From UHGV virus genome UHGV-0313909: a stretch of 13,808 nt of DNA. The stretch is one strand, 5' to 3'. Positions 1 to 13,571 of this stretch are shown here, one piece after another. The notes under the pieces were generated by a model that saw only the letters and a program-made list of their open reading frames with translations, was not told where the DNA came from and did no database searches. The position numbers were made by a program, and so were the translations under genes. Each line of letters opens with the position of its first letter. The stretch's first letter is position 1. The stretch is from a virus.

Positions 1-192
1 TTAGTTAATCAGGCCAACGAATACATGAACAGTAAACAATGGCCTGGTAAAGCGGCGATTGGTCGTCTGAAAGGTGAGGAACTGGCGCAATATAATTTGT
101 GGCTGGATTATCTGGACGCACTGGAACTGGTCGATACTTCCAGTGCGCCAGATATTGAATGGCCTACGCCTCCGGCAGTTCAGGCCAGATGA
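1..192 (+). CDS. tfa: Tail fibre assembly protein (Tfa), C-terminal 63 codons; 5' end lies left of the window
   Basis: Frame 1 of + strand is open from nt 1 to TGA at 190-192 and translates to LVNQANEYMNSKQWPGKAAIGRLKGEELAQYNLWLDYLDALELVDTSSAPDIEWPTPPAVQAR. Its C-terminus parallels that of the complete minus-strand Tfa at 164-766 (LDYIDAV..TDTSTAPDVIWPELPEA). Absent from the supplied ORF track because it has no in-window start of sufficient length. Confidence 0.6.
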   Translation, partial: LVNQANEYMNSKQWPGKAAIGRLKGEELAQYNLWLDYLDALELVDTSSAPDIEWPTPPAVQAR

Positions 193-766
193 CATCCGGC
201 GCGGTGCTGGTATCTGTTGCCGTCACCGCGTCAATGTAATCCAGCACAGCGTTAAGTCTGGTTGTTTCTGCCTGCGTCGGTTTACGTCCGGCCTGCAATT
301 TCAGTTGAATCAGACTGATGGAAGCCATTGCTGCATCAATCAGTGACTGGCGCTGTGCTTCTGCCGCTTCTACTGCGGCACCGTATTGTGCCTCAGTATC
401 TGTCACCCATTTTTCACCATCCCATTTATCGTATGGCGTTAACGGGGCGATAGTGGTTGTATTTTCGGGATAGTCGCCTAGTGCTGTGATTTCTTTGGCA
501 TCTCCCGTTTCGGTGTTATAGACTATTTCACCTCGATGGTCTGACACATATTCCCATGATTTTAAATCCACAGAACGGAAAATTGTATAACCAGCCTTAT
601 ATGTACCAGGAGCGTCTAAACAGGAATATGCAGGGATACCGACACCAATGGCAAGATATTCATTTGAAGTGGAAATATATTCCCGTGTTTCGCCATCATA
701 GTTATAGACGGTAATATTTCCCGCCTTTGTAGCAATAAACTCGCTATTTAATACAGCGTTATCCAT
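164..766 (-). CDS. tfa: Tail fibre assembly protein, alternate copy in inverted orientation (Tfa')
   Basis: 200-aa ORF; ATG at 766-764 overlaps the stop of the upstream fibre segment (TAATG on minus strand, translational coupling). MDNAVLNSEFIATKAGNITVYNYDGETREY...DVIWPELPEA is recognised from memory as the phage tail fibre assembly chaperone family (Mu U/U', P2 G, e14 TfaE-like). Confidence 0.8.
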   Translation of the reverse strand: MDNAVLNSEFIATKAGNITVYNYDGETREYISTSNEYLAIGVGIPAYSCLDAPGTYKAGYTIFRSVDLKSWEYVSDHRGEIVYNTETGDAKEITALGDYPENTTTIAPLTPYDKWDGEKWVTDTEAQYGAAVEAAEAQRQSLIDAAMASISLIQLKLQAGRKPTQAETTRLNAVLDYIDAVTATDTSTAPDVIWPELPEA

Positions 767-1266
767 TATGCAGCCCTCACGATATAGTTAAATGCAATAT
801 TCCGTGGGCGAGTATCGGCAGGAACGACATACATTTCACCAATTGCCCGCTCATTAGAGTTGTTCAGCAATAGGCTTGAGCCATTACTGTCATGACCCGT
901 AATTAAGATATCATTGGACAAAATAAGTGAGCCCGTACCTGCAGGAATACCATAAATTCCCATATCAAATTTAATGTAACCAACACGCGCGCTCTGTGCA
1001 GACATAACGCTGCGACCAGTATCTACTGAACGACCGTCATCCCAGCCACGAATAAACTCACCGCGTAAATCAGGCAATTTATTTGTCGGGTAGGCCTTTG
1101 CCAGTTCCGGGTATTCTTCAGCAGAAAAAGCCGCACCATTGCATTTCAGCCAGCCTGTTGGCGGAGTGGCTGAAGGCCACGGAACAGGCACACCAACGGG
1201 TAATGCCGAACCTTCTCCCAAACCAACGTTTAAGAAAATGCAGAGGTAACAGCTAACTGGCATCAT
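766..1266 (-). CDS. Tail fibre C-terminal variable segment, alternate (Sv'-like); silent in this orientation
   Basis: ORF with tail-fibre C-terminal character (PTGWLKCNGAAFSAEEYPELAKAYP, Gly/Ser/Asn-rich distal part), directly followed by tfa'. The crossover site at 1213-1238 lies in its 5' end. GGAG abuts the ATG with no spacer, so independent translation is unlikely; expression is expected only after inversion fuses it to the constant 5' part of the fibre gene outside the window. Confidence 0.7.
   Translation of the reverse strand: MMPVSCYLCIFLNVGLGEGSALPVGVPVPWPSATPPTGWLKCNGAAFSAEEYPELAKAYPTNKLPDLRGEFIRGWDDGRSVDTGRSVMSAQSARVGYIKFDMGIYGIPAGTGSLILSNDILITGHDSNGSSLLLNNSNERAIGEMYVVPADTRPRNIAFNYIVRAA
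1213..1238. other. Invertase crossover site (hix/gix/cix/pix-like), right boundary of invertible segment
   Basis: TTCTCCCAAACC-AA-CGTTTAAGAAAA has the 12-2-12 architecture and AAACC/GGTTT-type half-sites of Hin/Gin recombination sites (compare hixL TTCTTGAAAACCAAGGTTTTTGATAA, from memory). It lies 55 bp upstream of the invertase ATG and inside the 5' end of the alternate fibre segment, as gixR does relative to gin in Mu. Confidence 0.55.
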
Positions 1267-1293
1267 CTCCGGTTTTTATTCAGGGGGATGATC

Positions 1294-1860
1294 ATGCTTA
1301 TTGGCTATGTACGCGTGTCAACAAATGACCAGAACACCGATTTGCAACGTAATGCACTGAACTGCGCGGGATGTGAGCGGATTTTTGAGGACAAAATCAG
1401 TGGCACTAAGTCCGACAGACCGGGGCTGAAAAAACTACTCAGGACACTATCGGCAGGAGACACGCTGGTTGTCTGGAAGCTGGACAGGTTGGGGCGCAGT
1501 ATGCGGCATCTTGTTACGCTGATAGAAGAGTTGCGCCAGCGTGGTGTGAATTTCAGAAGCCTGACTGACAGTATTGATACCAGTACCCCAATGGGCCGTT
1601 TCTTTTTTCATGTCATGGGTGCCCTGGCTGAAATGGAACGCGAACTGATAGTTGAACGTACCAGGGCAGGGCTGGCTGCAGCTCGTGCCAAAGGCAGAGT
1701 AGGTGGATGCCGTCCTAAGTTGACCACCGAACAGTGGGCACAGATTGGGCGTTTACTCGAGGCCGGAGAATCAAGACAGCGTATTGCACTGATTTTTGAT
1801 GTAGGCGTTTCTACCATTTATAGAAAATTTCCGGCAAATAAGATCAATGAATCCCCCTGA
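1294..1860 (+). CDS. Site-specific DNA invertase, serine recombinase (Gin/Hin/Cin/Pin family)
   Basis: MLIGYVRVSTNDQNTDLQRNAL...DTLVVWKLDRLGRS...FRSLTDSIDTSTPMGRFFFHVMGALAEMERELIVERT... is the canonical resolvase/invertase catalytic domain with the active-site Ser in YVRVST and a C-terminal HTH (GVSTIYRKF). Start placed at the ATG of MLIGY (1294) because GGGGG at 1284-1288 gives correct SD spacing; the track's start at 1288 is 6 nt upstream. Confidence 0.9.
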   Translation: MLIGYVRVSTNDQNTDLQRNALNCAGCERIFEDKISGTKSDRPGLKKLLRTLSAGDTLVVWKLDRLGRSMRHLVTLIEELRQRGVNFRSLTDSIDTSTPMGRFFFHVMGALAEMERELIVERTRAGLAAARAKGRVGGCRPKLTTEQWAQIGRLLEAGESRQRIALIFDVGVSTIYRKFPANKINESP

Positions 1861-1908
1861 ATCAGCATTATGTTGATTATCCCTGCAAGCAGACAAATAC
1901 CGTTATTT

Positions 1909-1926
1909 TGTGTGAATAACGACACA
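1909..1926 (+). promoter_or_regulatory. Candidate Ogr/Delta-type late-promoter activator site (TGT-N12-ACA) for the FI operon
   Basis: TGT(1909-1911)-gtgaataacgac-ACA(1924-1926) is an exact match to the P2-family late promoter dyad. Its centre is about 85 bp upstream of the FI ATG, consistent with a site centred near -55 and a short leader. Confidence 0.45.
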
Positions 1927-2002
1927 ACTGCGCTTAGCTGTTTGTCAGGCACAATCACTTCAACATAGGGCGAAGCCTAATCCAATCAGGAGGTTCGCCA
2001 CT

Positions 2003-3175
2003 ATGGCTCAGGATTACCACCACGGGGTGCGCGTTGTTGAAGTCAACGAAGGCACCCGATCTATTACCACGGTGAGCACCGCCATCGTGGGTATGGTCTG
2101 CACGGGCGATGATGCCGATGCAAAAATGTTTCCTCTTAATAAACCCGTGCTGATCACTGATGTGCTGACTGCCAGCGGTAAAGCGGGTGAGTCCGGTACT
2201 CTGGCCCGTTCGCTGGATGCCATCGCTGACCAGGCAAAACCCGTGACCATTGTTGTGCGTGTGCCGCAGGGTGAAACGGAAGACGAAACCACGACCAATA
2301 TCATCGGCGCAGTGACTGCTGAAGGTAAAAAAACAGGTATGAAAGCCCTGTTATCTGCCCAGTCACAGCTCGGCGTTAAACCGCGCATTCTCGGCGTGCC
2401 AGGCCACGACACCAAGGCGGTAGCTACTGAGTTGCTGAGCGTGGCGCAAAGCCTGCGTGGATTTGCTTACCTGTCAGCGTATGGCTGCAAGACAGTGCAG
2501 GAGGCGATCACTTACCGCGAAAACTTCAGCCAGCGCGAAGGGATGCTGATCTGGCCTGACTTTACTGGCTGGGACACGGTGCTGAATGCCGAAGCAACGG
2601 CATATGCCACCGCCCGTGCGCTTGGTCTGCGCGCCAAAATTGACGAGCAGACCGGATGGCACAAAAGCCTGTCCAATGTGGGCGTGAACGGTGTCACCGG
2701 AATTTCTGCAGATGTGTTCTGGGATCTGCAGGACCCGGCAACCGATGCAGGTCTGCTGAACCAGAACGACGTCACCACGCTTGTGCGTAAAGACGGTTTC
2801 CGCTTCTGGGGGTCCCGCTGCCTGAGTGATGACCCGCTCTTTGCCTTCGAAAACTACACCCGCACGGCGCAGGTGCTGACGGACACGATGGCAGAAGCAC
2901 ACATGTGGGCGGTGGACAAACCGCTTAACCCGTCGCTGGCCCGCGACATTATCGAAGGTATCCGCGCCAAAATGCGCAGCCTGGTCAGTCAGGGCTATCT
3001 CATTGGTGGTGATTGCTGGCTGGATGAGTCGGTGAACGACAAAGACACGCTGAAAGCCGGAAAACTCACCATCGACTACGACTACACGCCAGTGCCGCCA
3101 CTTGAAAACCTGATGCTGCGTCAGCGCATCACCGATCAGTACCTGGTGAATTTCGCCAGCCAGGTCAGCGCGTAA
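2003..3175 (+). CDS. FI: Contractile tail sheath protein (P2 gpFI family)
   Basis: 390-aa ORF with AGGAGG SD at 1988-1993; position and size match P2 FI; followed 10 nt later by the tube gene. Confidence 0.88.
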
Positions 3176-3184
3176 GGGGACAAC

Positions 3185-3700
3185 ATGGCTTTACCACGCA
3201 AATTAAAACACCTGAACCTGTTTAACGACGGGAACAACTGGCAGGGGATCGTTGAGTCGCTGACGCTGCCGAAATTTACCCGCAAATATGAGAAGTATCG
3301 CGGCGGCGGAATGCCGGGTGCGGTGGATGTGGATCTGGGGCTTGATGACAGTGCGCTGGACACAGAATTTTCCATTGGTGGTACTGAATTGCTGCTGTTT
3401 AAACAGATGGGTAAAGCCACGGTGGATGGCATCCAGCTGCGCTTTACAGGCTCTATTCAGCGTGACGATACCGGGGAAGTGCAGGCCGTGGAGCTTGTCG
3501 TGCGTGGACGTCACAAAGAAGTGGATTCCGGCGAGTGGAAGACGGGCGAAAGCAACACCACCAAAGTGACCAGTACCAACAGCTACGCGAAGCTGACCAT
3601 CAATGGTGAGGTGCTCTATGAAGTGGACCTTATCAACATGGTGGAAATTGTGGACGGTGTGGACCTGATGGAAGCGCACCGCAACGCCCTCGGCCTCTGA
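3185..3700 (+). CDS. FII: Tail tube protein (P2 gpFII family)
   Basis: 171-aa ORF immediately after the sheath gene with AAGGGGA SD; size and order match P2 FII. Confidence 0.88.
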   Translation: MALPRKLKHLNLFNDGNNWQGIVESLTLPKFTRKYEKYRGGGMPGAVDVDLGLDDSALDTEFSIGGTELLLFKQMGKATVDGIQLRFTGSIQRDDTGEVQAVELVVRGRHKEVDSGEWKTGESNTTKVTSTNSYAKLTINGEVLYEVDLINMVEIVDGVDLMEAHRNALGL

Positions 3701-3754
3701 TATATCTGAACGGCGCGGGATACCGCGCCAGAACCCAATTGACAGGACAGCAAA

Positions 3755-4057
3755 ATGAGCGATAAGCAGACTGAAAAGACCATTCAACTGGATACCCCCA
3801 TCAAGCGCGGTAAAACAGAAATCACCGAAATTGTGCTGCGTAAACCGCAGTCCGGTGCGCTGCGCGGTACACGCCTGCAGGCCATTATGGATATGGATGT
3901 AAACGCGATGATGACCGTGATCCCCCGCATCTCCAGTCCGGCACTGACTGCACAGGAAATTGCAGAGATGGATCCGGCAGATCTCACTGCCATGTCGGTT
4001 GAGGTTGTCACTTTTTTGTTGAAGAAGTCGGTGCTTGCCGGTTTACCGACAGCCTGA
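3755..4057 (+). CDS. E: Tail assembly chaperone E (zero-frame product)
   Basis: 100-aa ORF between tube and tape measure genes; contains slippery heptamer T_TTT_TTG at 4012-4018 near its 3' end, as in P2 gene E. Confidence 0.8.
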   Translation: MSDKQTEKTIQLDTPIKRGKTEITEIVLRKPQSGALRGTRLQAIMDMDVNAMMTVIPRISSPALTAQEIAEMDPADLTAMSVEVVTFLLKKSVLAGLPTA

Positions 4058-7743: not shown

Positions 7744-8840
7744 ATTTCAGCTCTGAACTGCTTAACAAGGGCAACAAAACTCCCGCATTCAGCATCAGTA
7801 TTGAGGGCAGGGATATCACTACTGTGCTGGACAACCGCCTGATGGGGCTTACGCTGACGGATAACCGGGGCTTTGAAGCGGACCAGCTTGATCTGGAGCT
7901 GGACGATGCTGACGGAAAAATCGTGCTGCCGCGCCGTGGTGCGGTCATTACGCTGGCGCTGGGCTGGAAGGGGCAGCCGCTTTTCCCGAAAGGGGCATTC
8001 ACGGTGGACGAGATTGAACACACTGGCGCACCGGACCGCCTGACTATCCGGGCGCGAAGTGCTGATTTTCGGGAAACGCTGAATACCCGCCGTGAAAAGT
8101 CGTGGCACAAGACCACGGTCGGGGAAGTGGTGAAGGAAATAGCCGCGCGGCACAAACTGAAGATGGCACTGGCTAAAGACTTGTCGGATAAACCCGTGGA
8201 GCATATAGACCAGACTAATGAGAGTGACGGCAGTTTTTTGATGCGGCTGGCGCGCCAGTACGGTGCTATTGCGTCGGTGAAAAATGGCAATCTGTTATTC
8301 ATCCGGCAGGGACAGGGTAAAAGTGCCAGCGGTAAACCACTACCGGTGATCACTATCACACGTAAGGATGGCGACAGTCACCGCTTTACCCTGGCAGATC
8401 GCGGAGCCTATACGGGCGTAATTGCCAGTTGGTTGCATACCCGCGAACCCGCGAAGAAAGAAAGCACAACGGTGAAGCGTAAGCGCAGGACTAAGAATCG
8501 GAAGAAAGAGCCGGAAGCGAAGCAGGGCGATTACCTGGTGGGTACGGATGAAAACGTGCTGGTACTTAATCGCACTTATGCCAACCGGAGCAACGCTGAA
8601 CGGGCAGCGAAAATGCAGTGGGAACGCCTGCAACGCGGCGTTGCGTCATTCTCGCTACAACTGGCGGAAGGTCGGGCAGATCTCTACACGGAAATGCCAG
8701 TGAAAGTCAGTGGCTTTAAACAGCCGATAGATGATGCGGAATGGACTATTACCACCCTGACGCATACTGTCAGCCCGGATAACGGTTTTACGACCAGTCT
8801 GGAGCTTGAAGTGAAGATTGATGATTTCGAAATGGAATGA
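7740..8840 (+). CDS. D: Tail protein D (P2 gpD family)
   Basis: 366-aa ORF with GTG start overlapping the U stop (GTGA); last gene of the tail operon before ogr, as in P2/186. Confidence 0.8.
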   Translation: MNFSSELLNKGNKTPAFSISIEGRDITTVLDNRLMGLTLTDNRGFEADQLDLELDDADGKIVLPRRGAVITLALGWKGQPLFPKGAFTVDEIEHTGAPDRLTIRARSADFRETLNTRREKSWHKTTVGEVVKEIAARHKLKMALAKDLSDKPVEHIDQTNESDGSFLMRLARQYGAIASVKNGNLLFIRQGQGKSASGKPLPVITITRKDGDSHRFTLADRGAYTGVIASWLHTREPAKKESTTVKRKRRTKNRKKEPEAKQGDYLVGTDENVLVLNRTYANRSNAERAAKMQWERLQRGVASFSLQLAEGRADLYTEMPVKVSGFKQPIDDAEWTITTLTHTVSPDNGFTTSLELEVKIDDFEME

Positions 8841-8930
8841 TTCTTCGCAATGGAGAACTTTTAAGTTTTCAAAATGGAATAATGCGGTATCATTATTGTG
8901 AATTTAGCAAAAATGGGGAGAACTCGAAAA

Positions 8931-9149
8931 ATGATGATTTGCCCACTGTGTGGAAGTGCCGCCCATACTCGCAGCAGTTTTCAGGTATCTTCATTGACCA
9001 AAGAGCGTTACAACCAGTGCCAGAACATTAACTGCAGCCATACTTTTGTTACCCATGAAACTTTTGTTCGTTCGATTGCAACGCCAAAAGAGTCAAATCC
9101 GGTTCAGCCGCATCCAATGAAATCAGGACAGGTGGCGCTCTCTCTTTGA
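8931..9149 (+). CDS. ogr: Ogr/Delta-family zinc-finger late transcription activator (186 B / P2 Ogr)
   Basis: MMICPLCGSAAHTRSSFQVSSLTKERYNQCQNINCSHTFVTHETF carries the C-x2-C...C-x4-C zinc-finger pattern of Ogr. Start moved to 8931 (GGGGAG SD upstream), giving 72 aa, the size of P2 Ogr. Confidence 0.85.
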   Translation: MMICPLCGSAAHTRSSFQVSSLTKERYNQCQNINCSHTFVTHETFVRSIATPKESNPVQPHPMKSGQVALSL

Positions 9150-9176
9150 CTCTGCCGCCATTTTTTCACCATTGCT

Positions 9177-9206
9177 AAAAACAGTGATTCTAAAAATCAT
9201 TGTTTT
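9177..9206. terminator. Candidate bidirectional hairpin between convergent ogr and the downstream minus-strand gene
   Basis: Imperfect inverted repeat AAAAACAGTGATT-cta-AAAATCATTGTTTT with A-run on one side and T-run on the other, in the 68-bp gap between two convergent stops. The stem is AT-rich, so predicted stability is low. Confidence 0.25.
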
Positions 9207-9217
9207 CGAATAAGTGC

Positions 9218-9721
9218 CTAGCATCCGATAAGGTCGTTTGCTTCAAACTTTGGCAAATGATACTCATTTGCCAAATGTTCGTTATCTTTGTTATTTTTTA
9301 AATATTTGTATTTTAATGTATTTTTATCTTCATTGTATGATAATAAAGCTTCCCCGATAGGAACATCACGCCACCCTATTTGAATGCAAAGAAGGATAGT
9401 GACCTGCCCTTTATGGTTTAGCTTACCCGAGAATGTAAAGGTGCATTTCTCTTCATCAAGGCTTGTTGATGAACAGTTAGTGATAGTCCCTCCCAAATTG
9501 CCGACGACATCTGATGACTCAATTTTTATGCTTATTATATTCTCATTATGGTTGCGAATATCACCAACATTGTTCCAGTTTTTTGAGACTAGAAGCTCAA
9601 TAATTCTTTTTTTCTTAAGGCGTTTTACTTCCTTTGCCTGTGGTGAGTATAAGAGGTATGCGGGTATGCCTGCTACAATCGTTGCTACAATTGCCAGCAC
9701 AGCTAATATAATGGTAACCAT
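9218..9721 (-). CDS. Hypothetical membrane-anchored protein, AT-rich cargo (moron) gene
   Basis: 167-aa ORF from ATG 9721-9719 with AAGGA SD 6 nt upstream. N-terminal hydrophobic helix followed by KEVKRLKKKR, then a Lys/Asn-rich ~140-aa domain. The track's 212-aa version starts at a TTG with no RBS and is discounted; ATG at 9748 is an alternative start. Confidence 0.55.
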   Translation of the reverse strand: MVTIILAVLAIVATIVAGIPAYLLYSPQAKEVKRLKKKRIIELLVSKNWNNVGDIRNHNENIISIKIESSDVVGNLGGTITNCSSTSLDEEKCTFTFSGKLNHKGQVTILLCIQIGWRDVPIGEALLSYNEDKNTLKYKYLKNNKDNEHLANEYHLPKFEANDLIGC

Positions 9722-9788
9722 CTGAAGTCCTTGTTCTTCTGCCGCCATTTTGCCGCCAAAGATAAGTAAAGTAGTTTCTAACTTATTG

Positions 9789-9818
9789 ATTATGGAATGG
9801 AAGAATAGCAGGCAACAA
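9789..9818 (-). promoter_or_regulatory. Candidate sigma70 promoter for the cargo gene
   Basis: On the minus strand: TTGTTG (9818-9813), 18-nt spacer, CATAAT (9794-9789); about 60 nt upstream of the ATG at 9721. Confidence 0.3.
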
Positions 9819-9901
9819 AAAACCCATTTATGTAAACGGGTTAATGAAAACAACAAGTTAGATTAAAAACAATAAGTTAGGTTGGTGGTCAGTGGTGGTT
9901 A

Positions 9902-10954
9902 TTACGGGGTAATGCCAACCGCTGCCGCCACTTTGTCGCCACTTGGCAGCGTTGCCAGAGGATTGAAACGGAGCGCCGTTTCCAGATGATCCGGTGCCAG
10001 ATGTGCGTAACGCATAGTCATTTTTATATCGTGGTGTCCGAGAATTTTTTGTAAGGCCAGAATGTTTCCACCCGACATCATGAAGTGCGCCGCAAACGTA
10101 TGGCGCAGAACGTGTGTGAGTTGACCGCGAGGGAGCACGATAGACGTTTTTTCCATCACGGATAAAAATTGAAAATAGCAGTCTGTGAAGAAATTGAACC
10201 CATCAAGCGCCATGATCTCTTCGTAAAGCTCTTTACTGATAGGGATACTTCTGTTTTTCTTCCCCTTCGTTCTTACAAAGGTAATTCGGTATTTGGTCAC
10301 CTGTGAACGAGTAAGATTTACGGCTTCTCGCCAGCGTGCGCCTGTGCTTAAGCATATCTTAACTACCAGTGCTAGAATTGGGTCCTGACGTTTGCAATCA
10401 GCCAGTAATTCAACAATCTGCTCATGGGTAAGCCATGCCATCTCTTTTTCTGCGATGGTGAATTTTCGCATGTTCTCCAGTGGGTTCGGATACGACCATT
10501 CGCCCAGACGGGATAGTTCGCTAAAAACACTACTTAGATAGCTTTGCTCCAGGTTAATGGTGACCGGGCTTGCTCCTTTCTTCCATTTCTCGCTGAAGTA
10601 GATCTCGCCTGTCAGGCGTTTATCTCGATAGTGGGCAAACATTTTAGAGGTGAGATCGGTTGCAAGAGGATTGCCCAGAGCGCCAACCATCAGCAGCAAT
10701 TTGTCATAGACATGCTGCCCAGCAGTCAGAGATTTACCATGTAGTTTGAACCATAGCTCAACCACGTCTTTCAGGGTTCGACGATCCACTGATTCGCCCA
10801 GCCATGGCTTTGATTCGGTTTCTTCCATAGTGTGACGCTCAAAAGCCAGAGCTTCGCCTTTGGTGGCGAATTGTTTACGCACACGACGCCCACTTCGTCC
10901 GGCGGGGTAACATTCGCAAAGCCATTTCCCTGTGGTGAGTTTTCGTACTGCCAT
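9902..10954 (-). CDS. int: Tyrosine integrase (P2/186 Int family)
   Basis: MAVRKLTTGKWLCECYPAGRSGRRVRKQFATKGEALAFERHT... parallels the P2 Int N-terminus (recalled); C-terminal catalytic region has ARWREA...HVLRHTFAAHFMMSGGNILALQKILGHHDIKMTMRYAHL with the R..H-x-x-R..Y signature. Start placed at the ATG of MAVRK (10954); the track's 402-aa version extends into AT-rich upstream sequence. Confidence 0.9.
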   Translation of the reverse strand: MAVRKLTTGKWLCECYPAGRSGRRVRKQFATKGEALAFERHTMEETESKPWLGESVDRRTLKDVVELWFKLHGKSLTAGQHVYDKLLLMVGALGNPLATDLTSKMFAHYRDKRLTGEIYFSEKWKKGASPVTINLEQSYLSSVFSELSRLGEWSYPNPLENMRKFTIAEKEMAWLTHEQIVELLADCKRQDPILALVVKICLSTGARWREAVNLTRSQVTKYRITFVRTKGKKNRSIPISKELYEEIMALDGFNFFTDCYFQFLSVMEKTSIVLPRGQLTHVLRHTFAAHFMMSGGNILALQKILGHHDIKMTMRYAHLAPDHLETALRFNPLATLPSGDKVAAAVGITP

Positions 10955-11349: not shown

Positions 11350-11919
11350 CTATTTAACATACTTGACTGTTAAACTTATAATTTTACCAATTATTTCAAT
11401 GTCTTCTATCTTACATTCGAAGGCTCTGTTTCCACCCTCGACGAAGATTCTTCCACCGGGTAAACGAGTAATGTCACGGATCGTTACTTCGCCATCAATA
11501 CTTATTACCCATTTACCATCACGTATATCATCAAATTCTTTATCACAAATAAATTCAGAATTGTTATCTGTGATGACAAAAGGTTTTTTAAACGTAGAGG
11601 GTAGAAATCCCTTATCAAAAATATAAAAACCGTCTTCACGCAAGGCACCATCAGATAATACATATTTAGCAACTTCCATAGTATTTGTATTACCTGAAGT
11701 TTGCTTTGAACCATGTCCGGTTGTGAGCCAATTAAGCGAGGTGCCCGTTTCAAGGGCGCACTGGATTACCCATTCTGCTGGGAATGAGTCACGCATGTAG
11801 CGTGTGGCGAGTGTACTTTTAGAGATTCCTAAATGATCGCACAACGCCTGTCGAGTTTTGAATCCATAAGCTTCTACCATGCGCTCTATAGCGCCTCGTC
11901 CGCCTTTCTCCAAATTCAT
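11350..11919 (-). CDS. cI: CI-type immunity repressor (phage 186 CI-like)
   Basis: 189 aa; N-terminal HTH region (AYGFKTRQALCDHLGISKSTLATRYMR) and C-terminal domain; size and position (upstream of int, divergent from apl/cII) as in 186. Start placed at ATG 11919 with GGAG SD rather than the track's GTG at 11925. Confidence 0.8.
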   Translation of the reverse strand: MNLEKGGRGAIERMVEAYGFKTRQALCDHLGISKSTLATRYMRDSFPAEWVIQCALETGTSLNWLTTGHGSKQTSGNTNTMEVAKYVLSDGALREDGFYIFDKGFLPSTFKKPFVITDNNSEFICDKEFDDIRDGKWVISIDGEVTIRDITRLPGGRIFVEGGNRAFECKIEDIEIIGKIISLTVKYVK

Positions 11920-11943
11920 GGTCACTCCAAGTGAACTTTTATC

Positions 11944-11972
11944 TTGACGATTTCATTGTGCGATCGTATGTT
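11944..11972 (+). promoter_or_regulatory. Candidate rightward early promoter (pR-like) for the apl-cII operon
   Basis: TTGACG (11944-11949), 17-nt spacer, TATGTT (11967-11972); about 70 bp upstream of the apl ATG, in the cI/apl divergent region. Confidence 0.45.
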
Positions 11973-12044
11973 TATGGTGTTCACAAAATACAAACGATCC
12001 GTATTCGTCCTGATTAATCATCATTAAACGAGGAATGTTGCATC

Positions 12045-12266
12045 ATGAGACCTAACATTTCAATCACTCTTACCACGCCTCATGTGACTATTGAGCGCTA
12101 TAGCGAGCTGACAGGGCTGTCCATCGATACCATCAATGACATGTTGGCTGACGGACGCCTTATCCGTCACCGTTTGCGCAAAGATAAAAAACGCGAAAAA
12201 GTGATGATCAACATAGCAGCCATGACCGTTGATGCGCTTTCAGAATGCAATCTAAACCTTAATTAG
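12045..12266 (+). CDS. apl: Apl/Cox-like small HTH protein (excisionase and switch regulator)
   Basis: 73-aa ORF with GAGGA SD; first gene of the rightward operon opposite cI; HTH-like segment [21 protein letters not shown]; position equals 186 apl / P2 cox. Confidence 0.65.
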
Positions 12267-12298
12267 TTCGATTCTGAAATACATCAGAGGCATTGACC

Positions 12299-12808
12299 AT
12301 GTTTGATTACCAAGTTTCCAAACATCCACATTTTGATGAAGCCTGTCGTGCATTTGCACTGCGCCACAATCTGGTGCAACTGGCAGAACGTGCAGGCATG
12401 AATGTGCAGATTCTGCGGAACAAGCTGAACCCAGCTCAGCCTCATCTATTAACCGCACCAGAAATCTGGCTGCTTACCGATCTGACTGAAGATTCAACGC
12501 TGGTAGATGGTTTTCTGGCACAGATTCATTGTCTGCCATGTGTACCGATTAATGAGGTGGCAAAAGAGAAACTGCCACATTACGTCATGAGTGCAACCGC
12601 AGAGATCGGGCGTGTTGCTGCAGGTGCGGTATTTGGCGATGTAAAAACCAGTGCAGGTCGTCGTGATGCTATCAGCAGCATTAACTCTGTAACACGACTG
12701 ATGGCGTTGGCTGCTGTTTCATTGCAGGCCCGTTTACAGGCTAACCCTGCGATGGCGAGTGCAGTTGATACCGTGACCGGCCTCGGTGCTTCATTCGGTT
12801 TGCTGTGA
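12299..12808 (+). CDS. cII: CII-like lysogeny establishment regulator (phage 186 CII-like)
   Basis: 169 aa from ATG 12299 (GAGG SD 8 nt upstream). [49 protein letters not shown]...[23 protein letters not shown] closely resembles 186 CII as I recall it, with the same length and position. Confidence 0.75.
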
Positions 12809-12815
12809 GGTGCTT

Positions 12816-13112
12816 ATGCTGACGAAAGAACCATCATTTGCATCGCTGCTGGTAAAGCAAAGCCCGGCAATGCACTACGGTCACGGCTGGATCATGGGTG
12901 AGGATGGAAAACGCTGGCATCCATGTCATTCACAAGATGAATTGCTGTCTGAATTGACCACGAGGAAACGGAGAAAGTCAAAATGTATGCAGCGGAAAGT
13001 GAAGTGGTTTATCAGTTTTGTTACAGAGGGGAGAGTTATTCAGTACCTGAAGATGATTTGCTCTGTTGTTATCCGTCGTTGTCGGGCGATGGCAGTTACT
13101 TTTTCACGCTAA
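12816..13112 (+). CDS. Hypothetical early-operon protein (positional analogue of 186 fil); 3' extent uncertain
   Basis: ATG 12816 with GAGGTG SD just after the cII stop. The N-terminal ~55 aa look protein-like (MLTKEPSFASLLVKQSPAMHYGHGWIMGEDGKRWHPCHSQDELL), but the distal part overlaps the next gene in another frame and looks low-complexity. Confidence 0.4.
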   Translation: MLTKEPSFASLLVKQSPAMHYGHGWIMGEDGKRWHPCHSQDELLSELTTRKRRKSKCMQRKVKWFISFVTEGRVIQYLKMICSVVIRRCRAMAVTFSR

Positions 13113-13207
13113 AGGATGGGGCGTTTTTACGGGGAGAGCAGGTTAAAGAGACGGTACGAAAAAATGTATCTCCCCTTGAGCGTTACCGTAAGAACAAAGA
13201 ACGATAG
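12983..13207 (+). CDS. Hypothetical early-operon protein (positional analogue of 186 dhr)
   Basis: 74-aa ORF with GGAGAAAG SD 5 nt before the ATG; protein-like composition (MYAAESEVVYQFCYRGESYSVPEDDLLCCYPSLSGDGSYFFTLKDGAFLRGEQVKE...). Confidence 0.5.
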   Translation: MYAAESEVVYQFCYRGESYSVPEDDLLCCYPSLSGDGSYFFTLKDGAFLRGEQVKETVRKNVSPLERYRKNKER

Positions 13208-13229
13208 GTGCGTTTGGGGGATATGAAGT

Positions 13230-13571
13230 ATGGCAATTAATGGCGCTGCGGCGACTGTTCCATTAAGCCCCGGAGAACGCCTGAATGGACTTAATCACAT
13301 TGCGGAATTAAGGGCGAAAGTATTTGGCCTGAATATTGAGTCAGAGCTTGAGCGGTTTATTAAAGATATGCGTGATCCACGGGATATCAATAACGAACAA
13401 AATAAACGGGCACTGGCTGCCATATTCTTTATGGCAAAAATTCCAGCTGAACGTCATAGCATCAGCATTAATGAGCTGACCACTGACGAAAAGCGGGAGT
13501 TGATTAAAGCAATGAATCATTTTCGTGCAGTGGTGAGCTTATTTCCCAGACGGCTAACCATGCCGAATTAA
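13230..13571 (+). CDS. Hypothetical early-operon protein
   Basis: 113-aa ORF with GGGGGA SD 8 nt upstream; no family recognised by eye. Confidence 0.5.
   Translation: MAINGAAATVPLSPGERLNGLNHIAELRAKVFGLNIESELERFIKDMRDPRDINNEQNKRALAAIFFMAKIPAERHSISINELTTDEKRELIKAMNHFRAVVSLFPRRLTMPN

Follow-up and report, generated by a model that had tools for sequence, protein, structure and literature searches.

Two convergent fibre cassettes beside an invertase gene

The DNA analysed here, referred to below as the window, is a stretch of 13,808 nucleotides from UHGV virus genome UHGV-0313909. From the letters of the window alone, the original prediction had placed at its left end the end of an expressed tail-fibre assembly gene (tfa), a complete inverted counterpart (tfa'), an alternate fibre segment, a crossover site and a serine invertase, and all five are indeed present at the predicted positions. 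The 3' end of tfa occupies 1..192 (+), with 63 codons and a stop codon and a match to Caudo_TAP (PF02413, E=3.5e-16); we take this gene to be the equivalent of P2 G and Mu U, belonging to the cassette that is currently expressed. It is met by tfa' on the minus strand, a complete gene for a TfaE-like protein of 200 aa (164..766; PF02413 Caudo_TAP, E=3.7e-31; phrog_105 tail fiber assembly, E=9e-95), and the two convergent genes overlap by 29 nt.

The alternate C-terminal segment of the fibre (Sv') follows on the minus strand at 766..1226, with 148 variable aa and a Collar domain (PF07484, E=1.1e-15). Its reading frame abuts tfa' and extends as a free-standing ORF to ATG codons at 1266 and 1263 (766-1266, -; 165/166 aa), and gene callers annotate it as a gene. 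The matches of this ORF are confined to the C-terminal parts of full-length fibre families (for example, positions 470-638 of 673 in phrog_523). It had been proposed that the segment lacks a usable ribosome-binding site, which is only roughly right: GGAG stands directly upstream of both ATGs on the minus strand, at the poor spacings of 0 and 3 nt, and the gene callers accept the ORF. The ORF cannot be a fibre by itself because the constant N-terminal part of 354 residues is absent, and not only on account of its ribosome-binding site. The 165/166-aa 'phage tail protein' beside the invertase is the alternate C-terminus of the fibre and no separate gene.

A 26-bp crossover site of the pix/gix/hix type, TTCTCCCAAACCAACGTTTAAGAAAA, lies at 1213..1238, with its inner half at 1213-1224, the central dinucleotide AA/TT at 1225-1226 and its outer half at 1227-1238. 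The site occurs once in the window, was matched in none of 200 shuffles at three or fewer mismatches, and is identical at 25 of 26 positions to the site adjoining pinE in e14. Homology to other cassette types begins at 1212-1214. The spacer that separates the site from the invertase gene (1239..1293, +) is colinear with the region upstream of pinE in e14; the two look alike by eye, and the spacer falls within a blastn block of 84% identity. A consensus promoter scan returned no plus-strand match between the site and the invertase gene and no convincing sigma-70 promoter in 1239..1293, a result that is uninformative because the promoters of such invertases are weak. The spacer includes a Shine-Dalgarno-like GGGGG at 1283-1287, and since this is too close to the ATG at 1288, the ATG at 1294 is the likely start of the invertase.

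The gene at 1294..1860 (+) encodes a serine DNA invertase of the Pin/Gin/Cin/Hin family, 188 aa long, with Resolvase (PF00239, E=2.3e-53) and HTH_7 (PF02796, E=1.2e-13) domains and a match to phrog_125 DNA invertase (E=2e-99). Residues 1-184 align with the Mu Gin structures 3UJ3 and 4M6F (E about 1e-91), and Ser9 is kept, aligned to Ser9 of 4M6F. The protein is 83% identical to e14 Pin (PinE) in a pairwise global alignment (157/189) and 85% identical in a multiple alignment, and 71-73% identical to Mu Gin over the whole length. This is the build of the Din family, a small serine recombinase with an N-terminal catalytic domain bearing the nucleophilic Ser and a C-terminal HTH, and nearly all family-invariant residues are kept.

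A partner site inside the fibre gene to the left

If the locus is invertible, a second crossover site and the constant part of the fibre gene must lie to the left of the window, as the original prediction had pointed out. The window was extended leftwards by an exact-sequence look-up of the invertase, which is carried by at least 23 contigs. Over 11,860 nt, two contigs, L006 and L009, match the window at 100% identity, and because of this identity L006 serves as its leftward extension; the left half of the locus, which is outside the window, was read from this contig. Positions 1-192 of the window correspond at 100% to 8708-8899 of L006, where the full tfa gene (8468-8899) encodes 143 aa. The gene order in L006 is V-W-J-I, followed by a fibre gene of 468 aa (PF12571 and Gp53-like_C) and the 143-aa tfa.

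The H-type gene for the 468-aa fibre contains the partner site, TTCTCGCATACCTTGGTTTGGGAGAA, in inverted orientation at L006 8095-8120; the right site follows 1,825 bp downstream, so that the partner corresponds to -612 to -587 in the numbering of the window. When each site is read inwards from its outer end, the core is TT in both and the 12 nt of the inner half-site, GGTTTGGGAGAA, are the same. In the fibre gene, LGLGE, with which the 354-residue constant part ends, is encoded by this core together with the inner half-site. As is usual for the Din family, the two sites are inverted 26-bp imperfect palindromes with the family consensus and a common central dinucleotide, and they fit the Sandmeier consensus (Mu/P1/e14/p15B/S. 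boydii) as quoted in a passage of Forde et al. 2014 (PMC4134206). The same inverted-repeat pair is present in three annotated relatives (L001-L003), 1.8-1.86 kb apart. We also considered a third site with multiple inversions, resembling a shufflon and comparable to one EPEC P2-like prophage. Only two sites are present in L006 at eight or fewer mismatches, and the element is therefore a simple two-state switch.

Near-identical genomes carry the segment in both orientations

Contig L005 matches L006 at 99.9% identity apart from 8107-9936, which is present as the reverse complement, and the breakpoints of this inversion fall within the two sites. Inverting L006 in silico at the site centres yields L005, with 4 mismatches in 18,534 nt, none of them in the segment or at the junctions. 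Both in the simulation and in the real L005, the flipped fibre gene is in frame and encodes 502 aa, with LGLGE fused directly to GSALPVG, and the fibre gene is immediately followed by tfa' in L005. This gene structure agrees with the proposal that the alternate segment is expressed by fusion after inversion. Between the two states, 354 residues of the fibre stay constant, while the fibre changes from 468 to 502 aa and the chaperone from 143 to 200 aa. Simulated inversion of L001-L003 likewise gave in-frame fibres, of 502-518 aa.

The flipped state is also present in L012, an NCBI isolate assembly that stands for 7 contigs: its invertase side is 100% identical to the window and its junction is flipped, again with breakpoints in the two sites. 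A homologous cassette in expressed orientation occurs in KC618326, a P2-like phage of E. coli O157:H43 T22. In a comparison between samples, L005 and L012 represent one orientation and L006, L009 and the window the other. Given that contigs of both orientations are nearly identical and encode the same invertase protein, inversion has recently occurred in this lineage. Absence of an inverted copy of the site within a few kb to the left, or a single fixed orientation together with a disrupted invertase, had been named in advance as contrary outcomes; the partner site is there, the invertase is full length, and L005 and L012 differ in orientation from L006. Three points are direct observations: how the locus is built, that the fibre gene is fused in frame in either state, and that genomes almost identical to each other occur naturally in both orientations.

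A search of complete genomes with a flipped left junction built from L002 reached at least 80% query coverage in only 9 complete E. coli genomes, at 85-95% identity. As evidence, the exact-protein look-up is much cleaner than this search.

Since the contigs come mostly from short-read metagenome or draft assemblies, the flipped ones might be artefacts of assembly. We regard this as hardly credible: a repeat of 14-18 bp would not lead an assembler to a precise inversion, the flipped junctions yield perfect in-frame genes, and the flipped state was found in independent sources, namely an ENA metagenome assembly, an NCBI isolate assembly (7 places) and the complete phage KC618326. A further explanation would dispense with active inversion and attribute the two arrangements to rare homologous or illegitimate recombination, or to exchange of cassettes between phages, at a locus that is now fixed. 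Whole-segment exchange does happen, as L007 and L008 carry different cassettes in otherwise 98%-identical phages, with the boundaries at the sites. Yet the 1.8-kb segment is identical in L005 and L006 and cleanly inverted between them, the exact product of site-specific inversion, and the sites that bound it have only about 14-18 bp in common, too short for efficient homologous recombination. With an intact invertase adjoining the segment and both states recurring in several independent samples, such an origin is very improbable. Cassette boundaries at the sites were also considered as a sign of invertase-mediated exchange between phages, and boundaries of this appearance are expected whatever the mechanism.

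An unusual residue in the invertase and a presumed enhancer

At position 139 the invertase has Cys (GGCRPKL), which is unique among 15 aligned sequences; the 14 others all have Arg, and include nine other members of the 90% cluster, two E. coli relatives, Pin and Gin. Alignment to the DNA-binding peptide of Hin (1HCR) places Cys139 opposite Hin Arg140, where the peptide begins. Hin Arg140 reportedly belongs to the minor-groove arm (Feng, Johnson and Dickerson 1994, Science 263:348), and DNA binding by the Cys139 enzyme may therefore be weakened. The next residue is Arg140, where relatives have an RR pair.

These observations raise the possibility that the switch is real, but that its own invertase is crippled by the change from Arg139 to Cys, so that inversion would be carried out in trans by a Pin- or Gin-type enzyme of the host, such as e14 Pin or that of another prophage. 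The crossover site, at 25 of 26 identical positions to the e14 site, should be recognised by Pin, and complementation in trans has precedent: according to a passage of Forde et al. 2014 (PMC4134206), the Phi4 segment of EC958 inverts despite a truncated invertase. Weighing against a recent dead-end mutation, the exact Cys139 protein is found on at least 23 contigs (28 blocks indexed), with three cassette pairs and in both orientations. The neighbouring Arg140 might also substitute at this position, and the rest of the protein is fully conserved. Either the Cys139 enzyme works, or other invertases act in trans, and we consider a crippled enzyme with inversion in trans unlikely, while less remote than the two explanations discussed above. 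At a similarly low level of confidence, the change from Arg139 to Cys could mark a natural variant that binds DNA more weakly or in a different way, in which the rate of switching is changed or a host invertase is needed in trans. Our preferred reading remains that the locus is served by the invertase it encodes.

Inversion by Din-family enzymes is assisted by an enhancer with two Fis sites in cis, classically located inside the 5' part of the invertase gene. An enhancer with two Fis sites is presumed, from position and homology, at 1315..1378 in the 5' part of the invertase gene. This stretch has aligned counterparts in e14 pin and Mu gin and contains ATTT(G/A) and TAATG tracts; its A/T tracts are like those described for the Hin enhancer. 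When invertase codons 6-30 were compared with pin and gin, we found no significant excess of synonymous conservation (p = 0.12 to 1). The conservation of 1315-1378 could be due to coding constraint alone, because its synonymous sites are no more conserved than those of the rest of the gene.

A P2/186-like phage with the probable switch in a known slot

The genes downstream of the invertase are of P2 type: sheath FI, tube FII, E, tape measure T, U, D and ogr, with Pfam matches to sheath, tube, Phage_TAC_7, tape measure, GpU, GPD and Ogr_Delta and a TTTTTTG slippery site at 4012-4018. The early region beyond ogr is 186-like and includes int, CI, Cox/Apl-like, CII and Fil. To the left of the window sequence, L006 supplies the baseplate genes V, W, J and I and the fibre gene H, and the whole has the order of a P2-like (Peduoviridae) tail module, H-G-(hotspot)-FI-FII-E/E'-T-U-D-ogr. 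Among 5,426 complete E. coli genomes, 205 hold at least 80% of window positions 1-4000 in one place, and the gene content was the same in 25 of 25 genomes among the matches listed. Parts of the window are also matched by pro483, Cartapus and several P2-like phages of Klebsiella and Salmonella; the annotated records are 87-97% identical, and the matching phage records are annotated as tail fiber assembly (twice), tail fiber and DNA invertase.

Elements of this type have been described before. Goldberg et al. 2014 (PMC4272514) reported phase-variable inversion, detected by sequencing, in two P2-like prophages of EPEC E2348/69, one of them a two-state system. In the passages concerned, Forde et al. 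2014 (PMC4134206) describe both orientations of EC958 prophage tail-fibre segments in PacBio reads. For the Z/fun hotspot of P2-like phages, which lies between G and FI, a preprint (bioRxiv 10.1101/2024.10.15.618418) reports DNA invertases together with inversion of adjacent genes. The element in the window is of an already known kind in a known place, ordinary and documented. The phrase 'grafted onto a P2/186-type tail module', which had been used of it, is correct as to the P2-type tail genes and overstates the novelty, as fibre modules that carry an invertase are common between G and FI in P2-like phages.

Relationship to e14, Mu and other P2-like loci

The closest classical relative is the P segment of e14 in K-12 (stfP-tfaP / tfaE-stfE / pinE), which has the same order of parts, a pair of tfa genes that likewise converge with an overlap of 29 nt, and a nearly equal distance between the sites (1,827 bp, against 1,825 bp here). 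The product of tfa' is 86% identical to e14 TfaE, whereas the StfE tip is 57% identical, and at the DNA level the two loci are 84-88% identical over tfaE and over the start of Sv', the site and pin. Unlike e14, which is a defective lambdoid remnant, the phage studied here is P2/186-like and has an apparently intact set of genes from tail to early region; its constant part is a fibre of the P2 H type (PF12571), its expressed tip is Gp53-like_C and its invertase carries Cys139.

The original prediction had likened the organisation to that of the Mu G segment. The organisation Sc-gix-Sv-U-U'-Sv'-gix-gin and a host-range switch, here a predicted one, by in-frame exchange of the fibre C-terminus are common to both, but e14 Pin and not Mu is the closest classical relative. 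The Mu segment measures about 3 kb, compared with 1.8 kb here. For the Mu fibre and chaperone, no similarity was detected at the blastp threshold used; the DNA identity with Mu is 70% and confined to the invertase gene, and no Mu site was found within 7 mismatches. Mu is much more distant than e14 despite the common organisation.

The P2-like loci of E. coli (the EPEC E2348/69 prophages, pro483, Cartapus, the T22 phage and the Z/fun invertases) hold the same kind of element in the same slot, and the locus studied here differs from them only by allele, in its particular pair of fibre tips and in Cys139. The switches of EC958, as described in passages of Forde et al. 2014 (PMC4134206), likewise have 26-bp sites with the same consensus, a constant 5' part of the fibre gene with an invertible Collar-domain 3' part, and a minor fibre or chaperone gene that is inverted along with it, as here. 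They differ in belonging to different prophages, whose types are not stated in those passages, in their segments of 2.1-3.1 kb and in having one truncated invertase.

A probable two-state switch of fibre tip and chaperone

Taken together, we assign a probability of about 85% to the reading that the left end of the window is the right half of a working Pin/Gin-type invertible tail-fibre switch, which a temperate P2/186-like phage of E. coli carries in the slot between H/G and FI. Two convergent cassettes lie between the sites, and each pairs a fibre tip with the assembly chaperone cognate to it. If the enzyme acts as Gin and Hin do, its dimers would bind both sites and, with Fis at the presumed enhancer near the start of the invertase gene, would form an invertasome on supercoiled DNA. 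The strands would be cut at the central TT/AA dinucleotide through Ser9, rotated by 180 degrees and religated. Dependence on Fis and the enhancer is predicted on the analogy with Gin and Hin, as is catalysis by the Cys139 allele itself.

In the orientation of the window, the phage would make the 468-aa fibre with the Gp53-like_C tip and its 143-aa chaperone; after inversion, it would make the 502-aa fibre with the Collar-domain tip and the 200-aa TfaE-like chaperone. A population of lysogens could in this way release particles of two receptor specificities, and we infer an effect on host range from the exchange of the tip domain together with the chaperone.

Beyond correct annotation, the finding is of little importance. 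Where contigs or assemblies are distinguished by this 1.8-kb inversion, they represent one and the same phage, and both tips, Gp53-like_C and Collar, should be counted as expressed in phage typing and in host-range prediction. The Cys139 allele is potentially a cheap natural test of the weight of the minor-groove arginine in Pin-type invertases. If the tentative reading of this allele as a variant with altered DNA binding is true, it would couple the host-range choice of the phage to the prophage content of its current host.

Attachment site and organization of the phage genome

In two integrated relatives that encode the identical invertase (contigs L005 and L012), homology to the window stops at ...GGCAACAAAAAACCCAT (window about 9811-9827). 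Beyond this point both relatives pass into host sequence on the ybjL side; in the window, int follows. This divergence places the window in the attP configuration (an excised, circular or phage-genome form), with the att core in this stretch.

Between ogr and the attachment site lies an ORF of 176 amino acids on the minus strand (9218-9748), which had no match in Pfam, PHROG or PADLOC. Three 98%-identical relatives (L007, L008 and L010) lack it, which makes it a probable cargo gene of the hotspot that P2-like phages have between ogr and att. Reading its translation by eye, we also noted an apparent hydrophobic N-terminal stretch.

The early region (11350-13571) is 186-like, not P2-like, and includes CI (Phage_CI_repr and Phage_CI_C domains), a Cox/Apl-like excisionase-repressor, CII (CP76), Fil and DUF5347. 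The late-gene activator is an Ogr/Delta zinc finger located after D, at the P2 position. Within the tail genes, the gpE ORF (3755-4057) carries a TTTTTTG heptamer (4012-4018) close to its 3' end and is followed by a reading frame of the GpE family, the classical layout of the P2 E/E' -1 frameshift of tail assembly chaperones.

The invertase gene and exchange of the invertible segment

About 77 nucleotides upstream of the FI start (2003), TGTGTGAATAACGACACA (1909-1926) forms a TGT-N12-ACA dyad, the shape taken by the P2 late promoter element that depends on Ogr (P_F). The invertase gene (1294-1860) thus lies between G and the putative FI promoter. Taken by itself, the dyad pattern is no more frequent in the window than chance predicts (5 occurrences versus 3.85 expected).

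Codon 139 of the invertase is TGC (1708-1710), encoding Cys; in all 14 relatives aligned, e14 Pin and Mu Gin among them, the residue is Arg. This position corresponds to Arg140 of Hin, which lies in the arm that binds the DNA minor groove. Even so, the exact Cys139 allele was found on 23 contigs read, with both orientations of the segment represented.

Four phage contigs (L007, L008, L010 and L011) have flanks about 98% identical to those of the window and its contig L006 and encode the identical invertase, with entirely different pairs of fibre-tip and chaperone cassettes, for example a Gly_rich_2-type fibre of 576 aa together with chaperones of 131 and 125 aa. Their homology stops exactly at the two crossover sites, at window 1212-1214 on the right and, on the left, at 8114-8121 of L006, the contig that extends the window leftward. 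The coincidence of both boundaries with these sites indicates, from sequence comparison, that invertible segments are swapped whole, as units, between phages.
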